From the NCBI GenBank assembly GCA_043803405.1, contig JAZDKB010000004.1, positions 32,001-96,000 of the forward strand: 64,000 nucleotides of DNA, in the 5' to 3' direction. The stretch comes from Spirochaetota bacterium (lineage in GTDB: Bacteria > Spirochaetota > UBA4802 > JAFGDQ01). The notes below the pieces were generated by a model. The model was given only the letters and a program-made list of their open reading frames with translations, searched no databases and was not told where the DNA came from. This document shows, piece after piece, positions 36,540 to 52,783 of the stretch. The stretch's first letter is position 1. Each line of letters starts with the position of its first letter. A program made the position numbers and the translations under genes.

Positions 36540-39031
36540 AAGTCAGTGCTTGCCTGTGCGCCCTCTGTGTCACCCGGGCCGTTGCGCCAGTTTTCGGCGC
36601 TTCCGGGCGCGGCTGTATCGATACGTTCCATCGATATTTTTGGGATGTTCGATCCTGCGGCCCACCCGGCCTGCATGTCGATGCAGTCTATTTCGCGTTT
36701 ATTGTAAAGCAGCCTGATTATGGCGCCTGTATTCCCGAGCGCTCCGGTGTATATCAGATCCGCGTTTTTGCCAGGCACTGTTGTGTCGTCGGTTCTCTCC
36801 AGAAGAAAATGCCCGTGAGCCGGAATGATTCCGTAAAGCTCTGTTTGTATGTTTCCGTCTATTGACCAGCCAGCAAGGCTGATGTCCGCGTCCGTATTGT
36901 TGTACAGTTCCAGCCACTCGTCGTTTGCCGAGAGATCTGTCCCTGCCCACGCGATCTCGGATACTGCAACTGTAAGGGCGCTGTGCCCAAGGTCGCCTTC
37001 CAAGTTATGAACTCCGGGTGTGGCAAGATTAAACAGCGCGTAAGAGTATTCATTGCCGATGTTTGCCTGAGTGTCGGTTGTAAACCAGTCAGCCGGATGT
37101 TGCCCGTCACCGGGCGTTTCTTTTCTTGCCATGCTTTTTTTAAGCAAATCGCTGTAGCCTGCGAACCCCGCGCTTCCGTTTCCTGCGCAGTCGATTACGT
37201 TGCCGGCCGCATCTTTAATGACTATCTGCAGGCTCTCGTTCGATATTGAGAGGCCGGATGTGACAATATACTTTTCCGGTTTAAAAGCAGATGCCGAGGG
37301 GTCCCTGTGCATTATCATACAATAACTGTAAGGAGCTATGGAGCATTCTTCAAGGTAAAGCGTTTTGCCGCCTGACCGCGCGCCCTCGATTGTCCATCCG
37401 TTCAGGTTAATTTCTTTTTCCCCTGTGTTTCGCAGCTCGATAAATTCGTCATTGGCGACTGTTTCGTCCCTGGATTTTCTGCTGCCCATCCACATGACTT
37501 CGTTGATTACTGCATCCTGGTATTCGTATTGTTCGTTGCTGCCGGTATTGCTGTTTACGATGTCTGTTCCTTCGTCCCATCTTTTTTGCCACTCGTCTTT
37601 ATAGAGCTTCGCGATTTCTGCTGAATAAAGTATAATGATATTTTCGTCGTTTTCCGCGTTCGCGTTGTAACTCCAGTTGAAGGAGCCGGTTATAACTGCC
37701 TCTTCGTCGATGATCATTGTTTTATGATGCAGCTTGCCGCCATGTCCGTCCGGCTGCTCAAAATAATTACCGTCTATTCTGCAGGGGATGTTCTCCTTAA
37801 CAAGCGATTCTTCCGAAGAGTTCGCGAGCTGAGACTCATCGAATATGCCTTTTATCTCTATCCCGTTTTTGTGTTTATTGATCAGCTGGTTTATGAGATT
37901 AAAATGAGTGAATGAAAATATCATGAAATAAATATTTTTTGCGGAAATATTGACAGTGTCCAGAAGATGGCTCATGGCTGTTCTGCCTTCGATAAGCGCA
38001 GGAGGGAACATGACGTCGATCGCTATGCCGTCAATTACATGACTGCGTTTGTCGCTTACAGGTGAACGGCCGGGGAGCCCGAGCAGGTACTCGAACTGTT
38101 CCCTGTAAGTACCCGCAATGCCTGCATCCTGAATGATAAGCGAATTATTGTTGTTAAGGTTAAAGTCCGTGTATGTGCAGTTCGCAGATCCTGTGAAAAG
38201 ATATTCGCTGCCTGCACTGTCTGTGAATAATGCGAACTTGTTGTGCATTATGCTGTCGTTCAGTAAAATGAAATCGTCGAAGCCGGCCGCTGCGGGAAAC
38301 TCGACGCGCTGTTTCCCTTCGGCAGGGAAATACGTATCGAGTGCCGAGGCAATTCTATAGTAGCCGGCGTAGTAATTTCCGGATCCTGCCGCGATTGTCC
38401 CGTCTCCGTCCAGGTCGCCGGCAAAGCGCACGTGTACTCCTCTTTCTATTGCGCTTTCTATTGCACAAAGCGCGTTCTCGCTGTCCATGCCGTAAAAGCA
38501 CAGGTCGAGGTATCCGCCTGCTGGCTGGCTGTTTATCATTTCCGTAAATGCTTCTTCAAGAGATGTATCCCGATCAGGACCTGAGAAATATACTTCTATG
38601 TTTGATTTAGTGAAGTTTATGTTGAAAGAAAATCCAGGAGTAGCCGGGTCATTGCTTCTGATCATTATTCTTCCAAAGTTATTTTTTTCTTTCGAGAAAA
38701 ATTGTAACGAGAAATTTGTGTTCCCGCCCGGTTTAACAATCCATGAAGGAGCTTTTAATATGCTGAAGCACAGCGAATCCGAATTGACGTTTTCCACTAT
38801 TAAATCGGATGATCCATTGTTCCCGATAGTGAAAACAATCTCCACAGGATTGCCGGAGTATGAGTGTATTCCTATTGTATCTCCGGGTTTTACTGTTGCC
38901 GAATTATACGTGATGCATATATCCGGGCTGCTTGCGTCCTGTGAAAGATCGCTGCAGGAAACAGAAGCGATGATTGAGAGATACATCGTTTTTATTATTG
39001 CTGAGAGAATAATCTTGATTGTTGCGTGCAA
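36536..39031 (-). CDS. Lipoprotein with Ig-like, two PLD (HKD) and two lamin-tail domains
   Basis: MHNK..TGSAN and LHHKTMIID..TGSFN; INEVMW..EFIELRN and SEIAW..EWLELYN lamin-tail motifs; lipobox SVSC; TTG start. Confidence 0.8.
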   Translation of the reverse strand: MHATIKIILSAIIKTMYLSIIASVSCSDLSQDASSPDICITYNSATVKPGDTIGIHSYSGNPVEIVFTIGNNGSSDLIVENVNSDSLCFSILKAPSWIVKPGGNTNFSLQFFSKEKNNFGRIMIRSNDPATPGFSFNINFTKSNIEVYFSGPDRDTSLEEAFTEMINSQPAGGYLDLCFYGMDSENALCAIESAIERGVHVRFAGDLDGDGTIAAGSGNYYAGYYRIASALDTYFPAEGKQRVEFPAAAGFDDFILLNDSIMHNKFALFTDSAGSEYLFTGSANCTYTDFNLNNNNSLIIQDAGIAGTYREQFEYLLGLPGRSPVSDKRSHVIDGIAIDVMFPPALIEGRTAMSHLLDTVNISAKNIYFMIFSFTHFNLINQLINKHKNGIEIKGIFDESQLANSSEESLVKENIPCRIDGNYFEQPDGHGGKLHHKTMIIDEEAVITGSFNWSYNANAENDENIIILYSAEIAKLYKDEWQKRWDEGTDIVNSNTGSNEQYEYQDAVINEVMWMGSRKSRDETVANDEFIELRNTGEKEINLNGWTIEGARSGGKTLYLEECSIAPYSYCMIMHRDPSASAFKPEKYIVTSGLSISNESLQIVIKDAAGNVIDCAGNGSAGFAGYSDLLKKSMARKETPGDGQHPADWFTTDTQANIGNEYSYALFNLATPGVHNLEGDLGHSALTVAVSEIAWAGTDLSANDEWLELYNNTDADISLAGWSIDGNIQTELYGIIPAHGHFLLERTDDTTVPGKNADLIYTGALGNTGAIIRLLYNKREIDCIDMQAGWAAGSNIPKISMERIDTAAPGSAENWRNGPGDTEGAQASTDF

Positions 39032-47089: not shown

Positions 47090-48715
47090 TTAAAAAAATA
47101 AGGACGCATATATTCCAAATTTAGGATATAAACTGCTGTCCTCATAACTCTTATTAAGAGTCGTGCTCCGGGCTTTGTGATATTCCAGCGCTGTAAAAAA
47201 ACCGAAGTTATATTTGTTTTTATAAGTGTAGATCAGATAAACAGCGTTTGTATGGGAATCGCTCCGGTATTTGAACAATTGATCTTTTGCTGAATCAATG
47301 CCGGGAACTCCTGTAATGTCATTTCCAACTTCATATCCGTTGTACGAGTTTTTAAACTTTATTCTTCTGTAAATATAGCTATATCGTATATTTATATTTT
47401 CAAGATATATGGTTTCTAAGTTAAACCTTAGTATCCCTATCTGGGTATTTATTTTTATTTTTGGTACTGTATTTGCGTTATTTTCAGAATCATCAGTTGA
47501 ATCATTGTATTTATTACCCATAAAAGAAAAAGGATCAAATTGTAATTCGATTTTTAAAAAATGGTTCTGATAACTGGCGCCAAAACGATATGAGGGTGCG
47601 AAACCATAGTAACCGTTATTTTTGCTTCCATCCCGGATCCCCATGTTTAAACTGTCATAATACCATTGCAATGTGCATCTGCCATAATCTAATCCTGTTT
47701 CAAATGATATGCTGGGATTTAAACCATCATCCGGTGTTTTAAGGTCTCCTGATTTCCATTTGTATTTTTCCCATGGGACCAGGAACATATTAGGATCGAT
47801 CATGATGCCCAGGTGGAAATAATCGACCTTAAATCTATAGTAAATCTGTGTCTGGGTTTCTTCGTGGACAGAGTAGGGCATTGGGGCGCTCCCTGTGAGA
47901 AATATATGCTGGTAACCGAATATACCCGATGAGTACTCATTCTGCAAAATAGGTGTAAGATTGTTATTCCTGGAATTGGATGAGCCATATCTTGATCCGT
48001 ACGAAAACCAGTATCCGAGTGAAGTATAGTTTTTATATATCTGGGGTACGGCATAGAATTGCTGATATGTGTTATACTTATCAATACGCTCCCTGCCTGC
48101 TTTAATCCTGTCCAGTTCGATCTTGATCTGCACTGAATCATTCAGCATTTGCTGAGGAAAAACTTTTATTGTTTTTGCTTTACCTTTTTGAGTTTCTAAA
48201 TCAATAACCGGGCATAATCTGAAAGGATATGGATGCACGAATTCATAATTAATATTGCCATTATTATTAAAATTAATTTCCTTGCTGATTTTTTTAATTT
48301 TTATTTTCCAGATATTTTCTTTTGAGATTAAAACCTCGTGTCCGTCCAGGGTCAAAAAGGAAATATCGTTTTCGGAATAATCGATCGGCCAGCCTTCAAT
48401 AAGATTAACAATTTTATTATTCTGGACTGTGTCGATCTGGACTATATCTTCAAGTTCGTTTTTCTGAATCTGTATATAGGGAAAACTGTCTATTGAATAA
48501 GAGGTAAAATAAATTATTTCATACCTGGGGATCTCTTTAAATTTACCCTCCAGGGTTAAGAGTGTAATCTTTGATTTTTCTACTTTTAAAATGACTCCAA
48601 GTTCTCTTTCACAGGAAGAAACATAAAGTCCCTGTATATTTATAGCATATAGCGCTTCCGGAATAAATATTAATAGAAATATTAATATTATATATTTTTT
48701 AAAAAATAAGTTCAA
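47090..48715 (-). CDS. Hypothetical outer-membrane protein (paralog B)
   Basis: Probable TTG start at 48715 giving signal MNLFFKKYIILIFLLIFIPEALYA; C-terminus FGIYASLFF. Confidence 0.65.
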   Translation of the reverse strand: MNLFFKKYIILIFLLIFIPEALYAINIQGLYVSSCERELGVILKVEKSKITLLTLEGKFKEIPRYEIIYFTSYSIDSFPYIQIQKNELEDIVQIDTVQNNKIVNLIEGWPIDYSENDISFLTLDGHEVLISKENIWKIKIKKISKEINFNNNGNINYEFVHPYPFRLCPVIDLETQKGKAKTIKVFPQQMLNDSVQIKIELDRIKAGRERIDKYNTYQQFYAVPQIYKNYTSLGYWFSYGSRYGSSNSRNNNLTPILQNEYSSGIFGYQHIFLTGSAPMPYSVHEETQTQIYYRFKVDYFHLGIMIDPNMFLVPWEKYKWKSGDLKTPDDGLNPSISFETGLDYGRCTLQWYYDSLNMGIRDGSKNNGYYGFAPSYRFGASYQNHFLKIELQFDPFSFMGNKYNDSTDDSENNANTVPKIKINTQIGILRFNLETIYLENINIRYSYIYRRIKFKNSYNGYEVGNDITGVPGIDSAKDQLFKYRSDSHTNAVYLIYTYKNKYNFGFFTALEYHKARSTTLNKSYEDSSLYPKFGIYASLFF

Positions 48716-50345
48716 AAGCGCCACCGTATTCACATTTTTGTAATATTTTATTATCTTTATGATCAAAAAAATTATAATTATAAATATTATAGTAATAATT
48801 GAAGGTTGCTTTGATCGCCACATAATCGCTGAATCGGTTATGTAAATAGACTCCGGCATTATAATGCTGAAATTTTATATTATTTTTGTATTGTGGATAA
48901 ATCTGGCTGCTACCTGTCAAATCAAGGGCTTGAAAGGTCTCGCTGTATTTCCCGGACAGTATAATTCCATCAAGTCCAAGTTTTAACTCATTTGTTAAGC
49001 TGTAAATCAGTCCTGCTCTGAAATAGAATGAATTCAAACTGTATTTTTTTAAAGGGGTTGAATCATCATCCTCATATTCGGAATAGCCATTGACCTGTTT
49101 ATTATCTCCGGCATATCGTACAAAAACATTTTTCTTAATATCTCCGTTGCTGTCATTATAATCAGATATAGAAAAAATAGCCTTTATTTTCAGGTCTCCT
49201 TTATAGTAAATAAATCTTACAGTCGGGGATGTCTTTGGGGAAACGATTTCTCTTACATGGTTATTAACGTTCAAAGCATATATGGGATAGAACATGCCTA
49301 GAGAAGCGGAATATGGACCGTAATCAATTCCTAATAAAAGCATGTAATTATAATTAATCTCAACATAGGGGTTGTAGGAATATAATAGACTATTTGAATA
49401 ATCCAGATTATTCTTATCCTGTGTATAAAACCTGGTTCCTGCTGGCAGAGAACCGAGATTCATGTTCCCTATAAAAAGAGTATTGAAGAAATGAGTCTTA
49501 ACATCAGACTGCAGTATATTCGTATCAAAAAGTTCAGGAAGCCACTCTGAATCTGTTGTACCAACGGTTGTTTTACTCTGAAAACCATAGGCTTTGCCTG
49601 TAGACCATTGCATATACAGATCACCATTATTACTTTCTTTAAATCCGGCTTTCCGAAATAGTAAATTGCTTCCGAGTTTAAAATCCTGATCAAATATTAA
49701 AGGTTTTGCGTATAGATAGGTTCTTTCCTGGTAGCTGTATATTTTTATCAAATTATCCCGGGTTTTAATTAAATATTTACTAATATTTATTTTACCTTTA
49801 AATACCCTTGTAGGGTAAATAGTCAGTCCAGAAATGATTTTGCCTGTTCCCTGTGTGTTCTCATTCTCAGTATTTAAGATTACTTTTTTATAATTTGAAA
49901 GCTGCATACTGTCATTTTTTTTAAAATCATATTTTCTGAGTTTAACTATGTCTGTGAGTTTATGAACATGAATCTTGCCGCTTAGATCAAAAAATATAAC
50001 CATTTCATCTATCATTTGTATAGGAAAACCGGTAAAGGAGGGCGTGTCATTATCGAGTAGATATACATCCCGCAAATATTCCGCAATCTGTGAATTCAGA
50101 TCAATTTTTTCTATTGGATTCAAAACTATATTGTATATATATAAAACTTTTATACTTTCTTTATCTATTTTATTAACTTTGCCTTCCAGTGTCAGCACGC
50201 TTAAAGATGTTTCGTCAACACCTAATATAAATCCGGAATAATTCCGTTCTTTATTATCAGTAAAATTATAAATTTCAAATGCTGCGGCATTTATTTGAAA
50301 AATTATAATAATCAGAACTGATATTAGTATTTTAATAAGATTCAT
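48699..50345 (-). CDS. Hypothetical outer-membrane protein (paralog A)
   Basis: Signal peptide; Tyr-rich beta pattern; C-terminus YGGAFELIF; motif-level similarity to the downstream gene. Confidence 0.7.
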   Translation of the reverse strand: MNLIKILISVLIIIIFQINAAAFEIYNFTDNKERNYSGFILGVDETSLSVLTLEGKVNKIDKESIKVLYIYNIVLNPIEKIDLNSQIAEYLRDVYLLDNDTPSFTGFPIQMIDEMVIFFDLSGKIHVHKLTDIVKLRKYDFKKNDSMQLSNYKKVILNTENENTQGTGKIISGLTIYPTRVFKGKINISKYLIKTRDNLIKIYSYQERTYLYAKPLIFDQDFKLGSNLLFRKAGFKESNNGDLYMQWSTGKAYGFQSKTTVGTTDSEWLPELFDTNILQSDVKTHFFNTLFIGNMNLGSLPAGTRFYTQDKNNLDYSNSLLYSYNPYVEINYNYMLLLGIDYGPYSASLGMFYPIYALNVNNHVREIVSPKTSPTVRFIYYKGDLKIKAIFSISDYNDSNGDIKKNVFVRYAGDNKQVNGYSEYEDDDSTPLKKYSLNSFYFRAGLIYSLTNELKLGLDGIILSGKYSETFQALDLTGSSQIYPQYKNNIKFQHYNAGVYLHNRFSDYVAIKATFNYYYNIYNYNFFDHKDNKILQKCEYGGAFELIF

Positions 50346-50432: not shown

Positions 50433-51092
50433 CTAAAAGTAGCTCGCTGCCAAAGCAATAAAAAATTGTCCGCTGTAATAGAAGATTAAACTTAAATGAT
50501 TATATTTCCATGGTTTCCAGAACTTATTCGCAGCAAGAATCATGTCCGAAATATAAAAAAGTAATGCGCCGGCGATAATCATTAATGCCTGTTCATTATT
50601 AAAAGAAGGACTGCTGCTTGTCGAGAAAGCCCGGCTTACCATAATGGAGATTATTGCTATATACCCGATAACCGGAAGCTTAGTAGCTTCAAGCCTGGAA
50701 CGGATAAGCACATAAAAAGAAATGCCTGTAGTTAAGAGAATTATTGCGGGCAGGGTATCCCATAAAGAGAAACGTCCAAGCAACATAAAGACAATCGTAT
50801 AAATTATATGTGCTGTAAAAAACAAACTCAATCCTGTAATAAAGGACTTTTTCCCATCAAACATTAAAGCTATATCACCGCCAATGGAAAATAGAAGTCC
50901 AAGTAATATACCGAATGTGTAAAGCAGGTTCTGTGTTGGCTCTAGAAAAGATAATAGCGCCGCACAGATCACAATTAACGTAGAAAGCGGTTTAAAAAAA
51001 TATATTTGTTGCTGATTGTTATTAAATCTGGCCCGTATTAAAATAAAAACTGTAATAACCAATACCGGAACCAGGTATAATGAACTTTTCAC
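50433..51092 (-). CDS. Lysoplasmalogenase (YhhN family)
   Basis: FKPL, GLLFSIGGDIALM, F..AH..Y, LFYISD, YYSGQ. Confidence 0.88.
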   Translation of the reverse strand: MKSSLYLVPVLVITVFILIRARFNNNQQQIYFFKPLSTLIVICAALLSFLEPTQNLLYTFGILLGLLFSIGGDIALMFDGKKSFITGLSLFFTAHIIYTIVFMLLGRFSLWDTLPAIILLTTGISFYVLIRSRLEATKLPVIGYIAIISIMVSRAFSTSSSPSFNNEQALMIIAGALLFYISDMILAANKFWKPWKYNHLSLIFYYSGQFFIALAASYF

Positions 51093-51241
51093 CGAAAGCC
51101 CCCGATAGTTATCATTATATTAATTTTTATATCTGCCGATTTTTTAAGCTTGTAAGACTGCCGTTTCAGTGAGGCAGCGTGTTGGCTTATCCATGATTTA
51201 ATAATATTAATTTGATAGTCAAGCTGTAATTATTAGTTTTT

Positions 51242-51385
51242 TCATCCTTTCTTTCTTTTTTTCAGGTTCTCATCCTGAGAACATTTCCTGCTTATTCAGG
51301 TAGAAACTCCAAGTTTCGGTAATAGCCATCTGTTTAGAATAAACCACCCGATTATAATAAGAATTAAGATATATTCCGGTTTCAT
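51242..51385 (-). CDS. Putative small membrane selenoprotein (U-x4-C); 47 aa with Sec30, 29 aa without readthrough
   Basis: Not in the ORF track. AGGAG RBS; MKPEYILILIIIGWFILNRWLLPKLGVST-UGA(51296-51298)-ISRKCSQDENLKKRKKG; hairpin 3' of the UGA. Confidence 0.6.
51263..51290 (-). promoter_or_regulatory. Candidate SECIS element (small selenoprotein)
   Basis: GUUCUC-AGGAU-GAGAAC stem-loop with lower CAG/CUG helix; loop begins 19 nt after the UGA. Confidence 0.55.
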
Positions 51386-51521
51386 GATATTTTAAATCTC
51401 CTTTTATTATTTTTATCTGACAAACCAAAGCTGGGGGAGAAACCGGCGCGATAGCACCGAAAATATCCTCCCCATCATTTATAATTTTTTTTCTGGAATA
51501 TGAATTAAGTAATATATAAAT

Positions 51522-51824
51522 TTAACAATGAGCGCCATTATTGATCGTAAAACCTTCATTATAGGCTGTTTTGTAGAAATCTATTTCTAAAGGTGAATTG
51601 CCGCCTATCATGCCTATGGTTTTTTCATCAATTATGATCTTTACTTTATCGAAATTGTACAGCTTATCCTTTGTGTCTTTTGACTCATCCAGAGCCATCC
51701 CCAGATTGGGTCCGCCTCAGCCTATTCCTGCTACATAAAGTCTAAATGCAGGTTCCTTATAATCGGATTTTTCCAGTAGTTCACTAAGCCGAATCTTTGC
51801 TTCGTTGGTTATGTTGATATTCAT
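51522..51824 (-). CDS. HesB/IscA-like selenoprotein, 100 aa, Sec36
   Basis: Not in the ORF track. AGGAG RBS; MNINITNEAK...FRLYVAGIG-UGA(51717-51719)-GGPNLGMALDE...GFTINNGAHC; the UGA sits at the GxGC/U position and the frame continues with HesB-like sequence. Confidence 0.88.
51681..51697 (-). promoter_or_regulatory. Candidate SECIS element (HesB-like gene)
   Basis: UGGCUC-UGGAU-GAGUCA stem-loop; loop begins 25 nt after the UGA. Confidence 0.55.
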
Positions 51825-51858
51825 AATGTGCTCCTCTTTGTAATTATTTTTTATCTAT

Positions 51859-51886
51859 TTATCATATTATATTGATAATATGATAA
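51859..51886. promoter_or_regulatory. Putative ArsR-type operator upstream of the HesB-like gene
   Basis: Perfect 12-4-12 inverted repeat TTATCATATTAT-attg-ATAATATGATAA (AT-rich, so chance cannot be excluded). Confidence 0.5.
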
Positions 51887-51902
51887 TAATGGCCAAAAAA
51901 AA

Positions 51903-52178
51903 TTATGATTGTAAAATCTTAATTATTTCCTTAACCCGTTTATCTACTACTTCATAGCACGTATTAACCCCGTCTTTTCTGGGTACTATTATACCTCTGT
52001 TTTTTAATACTGCCAGATGCTGTGAAACCGTCGACTGCGGGAGCTTAAGCTTTTCAACCATTTTGTTGACATTGCATTCATATTCGGCCATCAACCCCGT
52101 GATCAGTTTTAATCTTACAGGATGCCCGATGGCTTTTAATATTTCACTGTCTTTGTTAAAATCGATTGGTTTACTCAA
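51903..52178 (-). CDS. ArsR/SmtB family regulator
   Basis: LKAIGHPVRL, PQSTVSQHLAVLK; two Cys (ECNV, TCY); TTG start. Confidence 0.92.
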   Translation of the reverse strand: MSKPIDFNKDSEILKAIGHPVRLKLITGLMAEYECNVNKMVEKLKLPQSTVSQHLAVLKNRGIIVPRKDGVNTCYEVVDKRVKEIIKILQS

Positions 52179-52209
52179 AGCCTGCCCCTTTTTATCATTT
52201 ATATATCTA

Positions 52210-52239
52210 TATATTACAATATTATAATATACTTGTCAA
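52210..52239 (-). promoter_or_regulatory. arsR promoter with palindromic operator
   Basis: TTGACA on the minus strand (52234-52239) next to near-palindrome TATATTACAATATTATAATATA. Confidence 0.5.
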
Positions 52240-52354
52240 GTAAATATTTCGAAAAATACCCAGGAAAGCGCCTCAAAATTACTTTACAAATAAGGGGATA
52301 CTAATAAAAACGTAATCATAAATAAAAAAATACTATTATAGTACAGGGACTTTT

Positions 52355-52783
52355 ATGGAAAACAATATCACAAAAATGATAGTCGAAAGCAAACCTTCCA
52401 GCGTTACTCTTGCGTTCAGGTTGATTTTGGTTTCGATCGCGATCGGAATTATTAACATGATACTGGAATATTTTGAGGGTGGATTGTATTATTATTCAAC
52501 TTCCGGAATTATTGCCACAGCCCTTATTATAATGGGTATCATTCTTTTTCTGGCTTTTCAAATACAGAGAGGAAAAAACTGGGCGAGGATAATATTCTTT
52601 ATTGTTGTTTCCATTGGTATTGTTTTCTCAGTGCCTCAGTATATGAGCACTTTCAGCAGGAACTTTCACATCTGGATAATAAAAATTATTATGGCTTTGA
52701 TTGATATTGCTGTTATTGTTTTGCTCTTTAATAAACAATCCCACGATTGGTTTCTGAAGATAAAGAATTCCATGAAAGGATGA
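52355..52783 (+). CDS. Four-TM membrane protein of unknown function
   Basis: Hydrophobic helices; RGKNWARI and S.DWF motifs. Confidence 0.75.
   Translation: MENNITKMIVESKPSSVTLAFRLILVSIAIGIINMILEYFEGGLYYYSTSGIIATALIIMGIILFLAFQIQRGKNWARIIFFIVVSIGIVFSVPQYMSTFSRNFHIWIIKIIMALIDIAVIVLLFNKQSHDWFLKIKNSMKG

Follow-up and report, generated by a model that had tools for sequence, protein, structure and literature searches.

The window, by which is meant the whole stretch of 64,000 nucleotides of Spirochaetota DNA that was analysed, carries three co-directional genes on its minus strand between positions 52178 and 51242, in the order arsR, a HesB-like gene and a gene for a small membrane peptide. Under translation table 11, the open reading frames listed here are limited to arsR and a tail of 58 aa from the second gene; reading TGA as selenocysteine (Sec) brings out a HesB-like protein of 100 aa (U36) and a peptide of 47 aa (U30). 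A first-pass annotation of this DNA had placed here two hidden minus-strand genes, each with an AGGAG ribosome-binding site (RBS) and one in-frame UGA, co-directionally downstream of a two-Cys ArsR, and both genes were found where it had put them, with a regulator that has exactly two Cys residues, C35 and C74. The unit is flanked by the gene of a YhhN protein downstream and a divergent membrane-protein gene upstream, both of which lie outside the unit in relatives. No isc, suf or sel genes were found beside it, and an Rfam scan of 50900-52500 returned 0 matches.

A short GC hairpin lies 3' of the peptide gene (51150-51175, minus strand) and may end the transcript before yhhN, and it is absent from the terminator-scan list. 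Elsewhere on the minus strand of the window (47090-50345), two tandem long ORFs of 589 and 548 aa resemble each other, each having a hydrophobic stretch at the N-terminal end and a C-terminal half rich in aromatic residues, and possibly encode paralogous outer-membrane proteins.

Transcription across the unit

A groundwater RNA run contains a 976-nt contig that is exact over 51250-52206 (957 nt), spans the three genes at a depth of 18, extends over both gaps between them and stops at 52206, which is 5 nt beyond the -10 box predicted for arsR. The other RNA pieces in 19.9 kb are three in number, 143-259 nt long and of depth 2-3.6. A single run from a single study supplies this evidence, and the run was located by using this stretch as the query and may come from the genome's own site; two sister runs (X2, X3) gave no contig of this stretch, which is no proof of absence. 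RNA contigs of this kind show neither strand, nor start, nor a single transcript, and the finding fits co-transcription of arsR, hesB and the peptide gene.

The gap between hesB and the peptide gene holds a hairpin without a U-tail (51430-51474, minus strand; -22.9 kcal/mol, z -1.9), which is specific to the lineage: it occurs once in the genome, and the hesB-peptide gaps of relatives do not contain it. It was considered as a terminator or a conserved RNA and rejected as both, being unconserved, devoid of a U-tail and bridged by the RNA contig. Transcription past this hairpin was a point on which the first-pass annotation had staked its proposal, and the contig does cross it.

Reading of the two UGA codons

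The genome encodes the machinery for Sec insertion, for which the first-pass annotation had called: selD (with a TGA of its own), the tRNA-Sec gene selC, selA and selB lie together on contig C26, each scoring over its curated cut-off. On another contig, a weak selD match with one TGA is present on the minus strand (G000:C13:39398-39523), and near 38980 on the same strand a frame AML-U-GP with a hairpin is perhaps a further selenoprotein locus.

Section 5 of PMC13188914 describes the bacterial SECIS as a hairpin with a loop of 3-9 nt, a G in the first two loop places, a distance of 16-37 nt from the UGA and a minimum free energy (MFE) of at most -7.5, and hairpins that fit this model follow both UGA codons. 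The predicted SECIS upper stem-loop of hesB (51681-51698, minus strand) has the loop UGGAU and lies 25 nt after the UGA; homologues with UGA retain it, and in the Cys homologue L028/L116 it is disrupted. The predicted SECIS of the peptide gene (51263-51290, minus strand) has the loop AGGAU, 19 nt after the UGA, with -8.3 kcal/mol and a z of -4.2 against 60 synonymous recodings. When the same recoding test was applied across the peptide family, the mean z was -1.82 at UGA loci (n=90), -1.04 in Cys forms (n=8) and -0.16 in an upstream control (n=98); p<=0.1 was reached at 58/90 UGA loci, with 32/90 falling short, and also in 3/8 Cys forms. A genome-wide scan for UGA plus a GGA loop returned 48 sites, mostly by chance, and was left out of the evidence.

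Occurrence of selB follows the same pattern. Among 61 genomes of the order, 37 have the peptide, and selB is present in all 35 that have its UGA form. The genomes that lack a selB match number 15: 14 of them have no peptide match, and in the other, G033 (84% complete), peptide and HesB alike carry Cys. In G012, selB is present and the peptide has Cys, with HesB keeping its UGA. Since the genomes are related, this co-occurrence is reported as a pattern and carries no statistical test. Both UGAs are most likely read as Sec.

The HesB-like selenoprotein

The hesB gene (51522-51824, minus strand) starts with ATG at 51824, preceded by AGGAG at 51835-51831 with a 6-nt spacer, has its TGA at 51719-51717 (codon 36) and stops with TAA at 51524-51522. 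Its 100-aa product contains GIG-U36-GGP and a single, C-terminal Cys100. It carries the UxGP motif and scores over the cut-off of PF01521 (30.9 bits versus 26.3) and, with U given as C, below those of both TIGR01911 (41.2 versus 66.35) and NF038090 (58.4 versus 85). HesB-like selenoproteins are an already known type, and TGA stands at a common column in 25/26 of the hesB genes linked to the peptide.

The protein resembles the structures of IscA and ErpA. The A-type Fe-S carriers (IscA/SufA/ErpA) have three Cys ligands, including a C-terminal CxC, and the window HesB offers only U36 and C100 in place of the three; Sec with only one Cys is found in 21/26 of the linked proteins. A Cys-for-Sec homologue (L116:3682-3987) has the C-terminal CxC of the A-type carriers, as opposed to the one Cys in 21/25 of the Sec forms. 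The function of HesB-like selenoproteins is described as unclear in PMC11097638.

A family of membrane selenopeptides

The peptide gene (51242-51385, minus strand) starts with ATG at 51385 behind AGGAG at 51402-51398, a long RBS spacer of 12 nt; its first TGA (51298-51296) is codon 30, and the true stop is a second TGA at 51244-51242. The 47-aa product consists of a helix over residues 3-24, the segment WLLPKLG-x-x-T-U30-x4-C35 and a basic tail. Among 26 aligned members, W14, L22, P23, G26, T29, U/C30 and C35 never vary, conservation is also strong in the membrane-face motif W-x3-N-x-W-x-L-P-x-x-G, and the spacing from U to the next Cys is x4 in 83/90 UGA forms. AlphaFold2 predicts a single helix 3-24, with a pLDDT of about 90 over residues 1-20 and low confidence (53-61) in the C-terminal half. 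Hydropathy, together with a charge of +2 on the C-side flank of the helix in 26/26 members, suggests, as a heuristic, an N-out/C-in topology that would place U30 and C35 in the cytoplasm.

A pattern search of a genome collection gave 509 matches, of which 350 code for relatives; Desulfomonile and Geoalkalibacter types are among the carriers. Eighty of these 350 were kept and pooled with 30 relative loci, which after removal of one unparsed locus (L043) and 11 duplicates gave 98 distinct peptide loci. The 80 kept matches are listed under at least six phyla: Spirochaetota, Desulfobacterota/Deltaproteobacteria, Planctomycetota, Methylomirabilota, Acidobacteriota and Anaerolineae. Within the order the peptide is found in 38/61 genomes by a single query and in 37/61 by a profile, and among 301 genomes of the phylum all 41 with a peptide match belong to this order. 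The U/C column of the 98 loci is UGA in 90 and Cys in 8. G003, G010, G018, G024, G268 and G323 contain an additional, more distantly related copy of the gene, which likewise has TGA.

A word-index protein search with the single peptide gave no candidate; a profile search found relatives. As many as 43 of the 66 hits in the protein database are 29-31 aa long, as expected when the UGA is read as a stop. Ten entries were checked, of which three are named 'hypothetical protein' and none bears a functional name. The representative proteins numbered 39, or 37 after removal of two unrelated repeats, and C-x4-C is present in 26/37; the second Cys thus persists where no SECIS is needed and does not owe its presence to the hairpin. 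At the Sec column, Trp or Arg stands in a few database entries (P0006, P0086, P0093). The search for longer, fused forms produced one hit, an upstream-extended truncated form, which is weak evidence either way, and the ESM Atlas offers one unnamed cluster at 0.88 for the peptide as a lead only. In three planctomycete loci (L041, L059, L063), the peptide's reading frame continues into a WCGPC thioredoxin that also has its own Met, which may give a thioredoxin fusion anchored in the membrane and carrying U/C-x4-C.

The peptide has no match in Pfam (best E 0.11), its profile has 0 matches in the PDB, and 26 members searched against NCBIfam release 20 reached a best E of 0.049, to unrelated membrane proteins. 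No entry of Table 1 in PMC13188914, a 2026 list of 119 families, fits the peptide motif. The families of Haft and Tolstoy 2025 (mSystems) were compared via that table and the NCBIfam scan only. The nine new families of the deep-Sep paper, as far as it names them, appear by domain or label only; three hypothetical ones are listed in PMC13188914 with NCBIfam models, none of which matches the peptide. Thus, among Pfam, NCBIfam, the PDB and Table 1 of PMC13188914, the peptide family is found in none. That a widespread selenopeptide family exists is, in our judgement, nearly certain, and much better secured than any function proposed for it below.

The ArsR repressor and its predicted operators

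The arsR gene (51903-52178, minus strand) encodes an ArsR/SmtB repressor of 91 aa from a TTG start, whose winged-helix domain scores over the cut-off of NF033788 (77.6 bits versus 55) and also matches PF01022. Cys35 is positioned just before alpha3 and is invariant in 16/16 aligned neighbours from three phyla; Cys74 lies in the wing and is found in 10/16. The classical metal site of the ArsR family is a Cys-x-Cys in alpha3, which is absent from the window ArsR. The first-pass annotation had likened the protein to persulfide sensors of the BigR/SqrR type, a class defined by Cys residues in alpha2 and alpha5 (PMC10054925, as far as it describes the classes); as neither helix carries a Cys here, this membership was rejected. 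RexT is described in the same source with two Cys in alpha3, a pair that is likewise absent. The ArsR appears to be a thiol sensor with Cys residues outside the described SqrR/BigR and RexT sites.

A sigma70-type promoter of arsR is predicted at 52211-52239 (minus strand; TTGACA-17-TAATAT, a 10/12 match by consensus only), and a predicted operator, a 24-bp imperfect palindrome, covers its -10 box at 52205-52228. A second predicted operator, a perfect 10-4-10 palindrome at 51861-51884 before hesB, overlaps a promoter-like site (51895-51866) and is placed alike in relatives. A matrix trained on 12 sites before arsR and hesB in six relatives, with the window left out, ranked 51861-51884 first (20.6 bits) and 52205-52228 third (15.3 bits) among 3,974,192 genome positions, and it is this ranking by a relatives-only matrix that makes the palindromes more than chance. 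Palindromes before arsR and before the first gene had already been noticed in the first pass, the one before arsR at 52210-52231, about 5 nt off the core given here.

Elsewhere in the order, a matrix site above the 99th percentile of AT-rich windows is present at 13/14 loci with an ArsR orthologue, L134 being the exception, and at 0/17 hesB loci without arsR. The layout with one site over the arsR -10 box and one between arsR and the next gene recurs in the orthologue loci, and the matrix scan gave no further convincing operator targets in this genome. The 24-bp palindrome is hence a predicted operator belonging to, and travelling with, this ArsR, and a palindromic operator over its own promoter, as in the ArsR/SmtB family, is present as judged on sequence alone. 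Upstream of hesB in L011, L015 and L017-L037, families without an adjacent arsR, another promoter motif (TTGAC...AGTATTTTAGTAT) is found, possibly the site of a different regulator.

Among the 14 orthologue loci elsewhere in the order, the ArsR heads a thioredoxin in seven and a CoA-disulfide-reductase-like (CoADR) gene in five; of the remaining two, one reaches the locus edge and one (L134) has a long unannotated ORF. A C-terminal rhodanese domain is present in both of the CoADR-like genes that were scanned whole, which is the architecture of the persulfide reductase Npsr as given in PMC7969121. A thioredoxin gene lies directly 3' of the peptide gene in two family relatives (L009, L022), and no rhodanese or persulfide-reducing genes are present in the window's unit. 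These neighbours point to thiol-oxidation or sulfane-sulfur stress, in line with the redox theme proposed in the first pass, and suggest that the ArsR likely senses thiol-oxidising sulfur stress. The predicted unit would work like a persulfide regulon outside the BigR/SqrR class.

Gene linkage and neighbourhoods

The order arsR-hesB-peptide occurs in 7/98 peptide loci, namely the window, five of six family relatives and L060. The linkage that the first-pass annotation had wanted confirmed in relatives thus holds within the family, and with 7/98 loci the three-gene unit is family-restricted and unsupported as a general system. The hesB gene is directly 5' of the peptide gene in 25/30 relative loci, mostly with very short gaps; within the locus DNA examined, a HesB match is absent at 72/98 peptide loci and an ArsR match is present at 33/98.

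Thiol- and sulfur-related neighbours in the 98 loci comprise WCGPC thioredoxins at 6 (from a raw cluster of 11 before the WCGPC check), TlpA-like proteins at 14, TauE at 5, YgaP at 6, an MBL-rhodanese directly upstream at 5, a rhodanese downstream at 3, PDO_seleno_TRX-like proteins at 3 and SQR-III-like proteins at 2 (4 SQR neighbours before checking). Neighbours unrelated to sulfur are Lon (15), NikR (18), UvrD/PHP (18), zf-HC2 (9) and RND efflux (7). All these counts are drawn from related genomes and are not independent. Loci of the Desulfomonile type have the order TlpA-like, peptide, ArsR, NikR; in Planctomycetes the orders are peptide, thioredoxin, ArsR; or TauE, MBL-rhodanese, peptide; or zf-HC2, peptide, YgaP, bd-like. 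At another locus of the genome studied here (L140:125-2247; G000:C43:65486-68740), hgcA and hgcB score over the NCBIfam cut-offs, which makes the bearer of this genome a putative mercury methylator; after them come another ArsR and an IscA/HesB-like gene of the Cys type.

A working model and its alternatives

The model we favour, to which we give about an even chance, is that the arsR-hesB-peptide cluster is likely one transcript, with Sec at both UGAs, that serves a response to thiol-oxidation or sulfane-sulfur stress. An ArsR dimer would bind the two palindromes and repress both its own promoter and the hesB-peptide pair, and it would be released by oxidation or persulfidation of Cys35, with the help of Cys74. 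With both UGAs then decoded by SelB via their hairpins, the products would be a soluble HesB-like protein, in which Sec36 and Cys100 form a pair, and a peptide that spans the membrane once and carries the pair Sec30-x4-Cys35 just beyond the helix, on the predicted cytoplasmic side. Both pairs would take up oxidising equivalents or sulfane sulfur in the form of a selenenyl-sulfide or persulfide, which in the case of the peptide would happen at the membrane, and thioredoxin or CoA-persulfide-reductase systems would recycle them. Of all this, the genes, their conserved UGA/Cys columns, the Sec machinery, the tie between the operator and this ArsR and the neighbourhoods are shown, whereas Sec insertion, co-transcription, repression, inducer, topology and chemistry are inferred. 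Against this model stand the ArsR Cys residues, which are not at known persulfide-sensing positions (C74 being missing in 6/16 aligned proteins), the lack of a reductase gene 3' of the peptide in this window, and the many peptide neighbours unrelated to sulfur (Lon, NikR, UvrD/PHP, zf-HC2, RND efflux).

Several of the same observations could be read differently. Selenolates bind soft metals strongly, and a response to soft metals or metalloids, in which the ArsR senses Hg, As or Cd via Cys35 and the Sec/Cys pairs bind the metal, with the peptide at the membrane, would make use of this chemistry; it would also suit an ArsR that scores over the cut-off of the ArsR/SmtB metalloregulator model, the NikR that follows peptide-arsR in 18 loci, the RND efflux genes near 7 and the hgcAB genes of this genome. 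This reading is nevertheless unlikely, given that the ArsR orthologues head thioredoxin or CoADR-rhodanese genes in 12/14 loci (another heads the long unannotated ORF at L134, with no operator there), that the window unit has no metal pump and that the alpha3 Cys-x-Cys is missing. The first-pass annotation had instead regarded HesB as an Fe-S or selenium carrier that exchanges cargo with the membrane peptide as its dedicated partner. The place of hesB immediately 5' of the peptide gene in 25/30 relative loci, the joint Cys forms in G033 and a HesB that belongs to PF01521 and resembles IscA/ErpA agree with such a coupling; a family-restricted unit and the 72/98 peptide loci without HesB leave the hand-off unsupported, and with a HesB in G012 that keeps its UGA beside a Cys peptide, one Cys besides Sec in 21/26 HesB proteins as against three in A-type carriers, and no isc, suf or sel genes beside the unit, we consider it unlikely.

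It is quite unlikely that the peptide serves a membrane enzyme or protease (cytochrome bd-like, SQR or Lon) as a small accessory subunit or as its regulator, with U-x4-C as a redox switch, a proposal that treats its place in this operon as secondary. Its size and single helix suit small membrane subunits, its membrane-face motif is strongly conserved, and 8 loci have bd-like genes close by and 15 have Lon, yet no single membrane partner is common to the clades. Finally, the UGA of the peptide gene could be an ordinary stop and the product a 29-residue membrane peptide, as the 43/66 short database hits and the long RBS spacer might indicate. Gene callers stop at UGA by default, however, and natural homologues have Cys at the UGA column followed by the conserved x4-C; together with the selB co-occurrence and the selection on the hairpin, this makes a plain stop highly improbable.

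A broader claim goes beyond the stress-response model for this cluster and falls somewhat short of an even chance in our estimate. The peptide may found a new family of tiny selenoproteins anchored in the membrane, about 45-60 residues long with U-x4-C and spread over anaerobes from at least six phyla, which escaped notice through truncation to 29 residues by gene callers, and which would act as a membrane-tethered shuttle for sulfane sulfur or redox equivalents, in this spirochaete family under the control of a new thiol-sensing class of ArsR with a Cys pair before alpha3 and in the wing. What lasts of the first-pass annotation is the two Sec-recoded genes, the operators, the linkage within the family and the redox theme; its BigR/SqrR assignment and the carrier coupling found no support, nor did the unit as a general system, and it underrated the peptide, the widespread and uncatalogued element.

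The peptide adds a widespread family to the roughly 119 prokaryotic selenoprotein families catalogued in PMC13188914, and a single-helix peptide with U-x4-C is a form absent from the table of that list. It is accessible by synthesis or expression for direct study. The HesB-like selenoprotein gains a regulator with a defined, predicted operator, and thereby a testable inducer. The annotation of many anaerobe genomes would change, since databases either lack the family or wrongly list it with 29 residues.

Comparison with known systems

Known HesB-like selenoproteins (TIGR01911, NF038090; UxGP in Table 1 of PMC13188914) have in common with the window protein the fold family Fe-S_biosyn, the sequence U-G-G-P and a UGA with a downstream hairpin. 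The window HesB differs in its one C-terminal Cys, and its gene in standing under an ArsR operator and beside a second selenoprotein gene. The Tso and SAO selenoprotein operons, as described in sections 7 and 9 of PMC13188914, likewise combine several selenoprotein genes with an ArsR-type regulator, and the UxxxxU of TsoB places two chalcogen residues at the same five-residue spacing as in the window peptide. TsoB is, however, a fusion of rhodanese and DsbD, while the window peptide has 47 aa and no NCBIfam match, and TsoR, also an ArsR, has a model that gives the window ArsR 37 bits at a cut-off of 115.

The persulfide-sensing repressors SqrR, BigR and HlyU (cluster 4 in PMC10054925) are likewise small ArsR proteins, and the likeness extends to the two Cys of the window's repressor and to its orthologues, which adjoin rhodanese-bearing and thiol-redox genes. 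HlyU is one of the four PDB matches of the window ArsR, the best being PagR, and the BigR model gives it 48 bits at a cut-off of 155. In the sulfide-detoxification operons with Npsr/CoADR-rhodanese, or with MBL-rhodanese and TauE, the likeness is one of company: such genes accompany this ArsR or the peptide in other lineages, whereas the window's unit has none of them and pairs the repressor with two selenoprotein genes.
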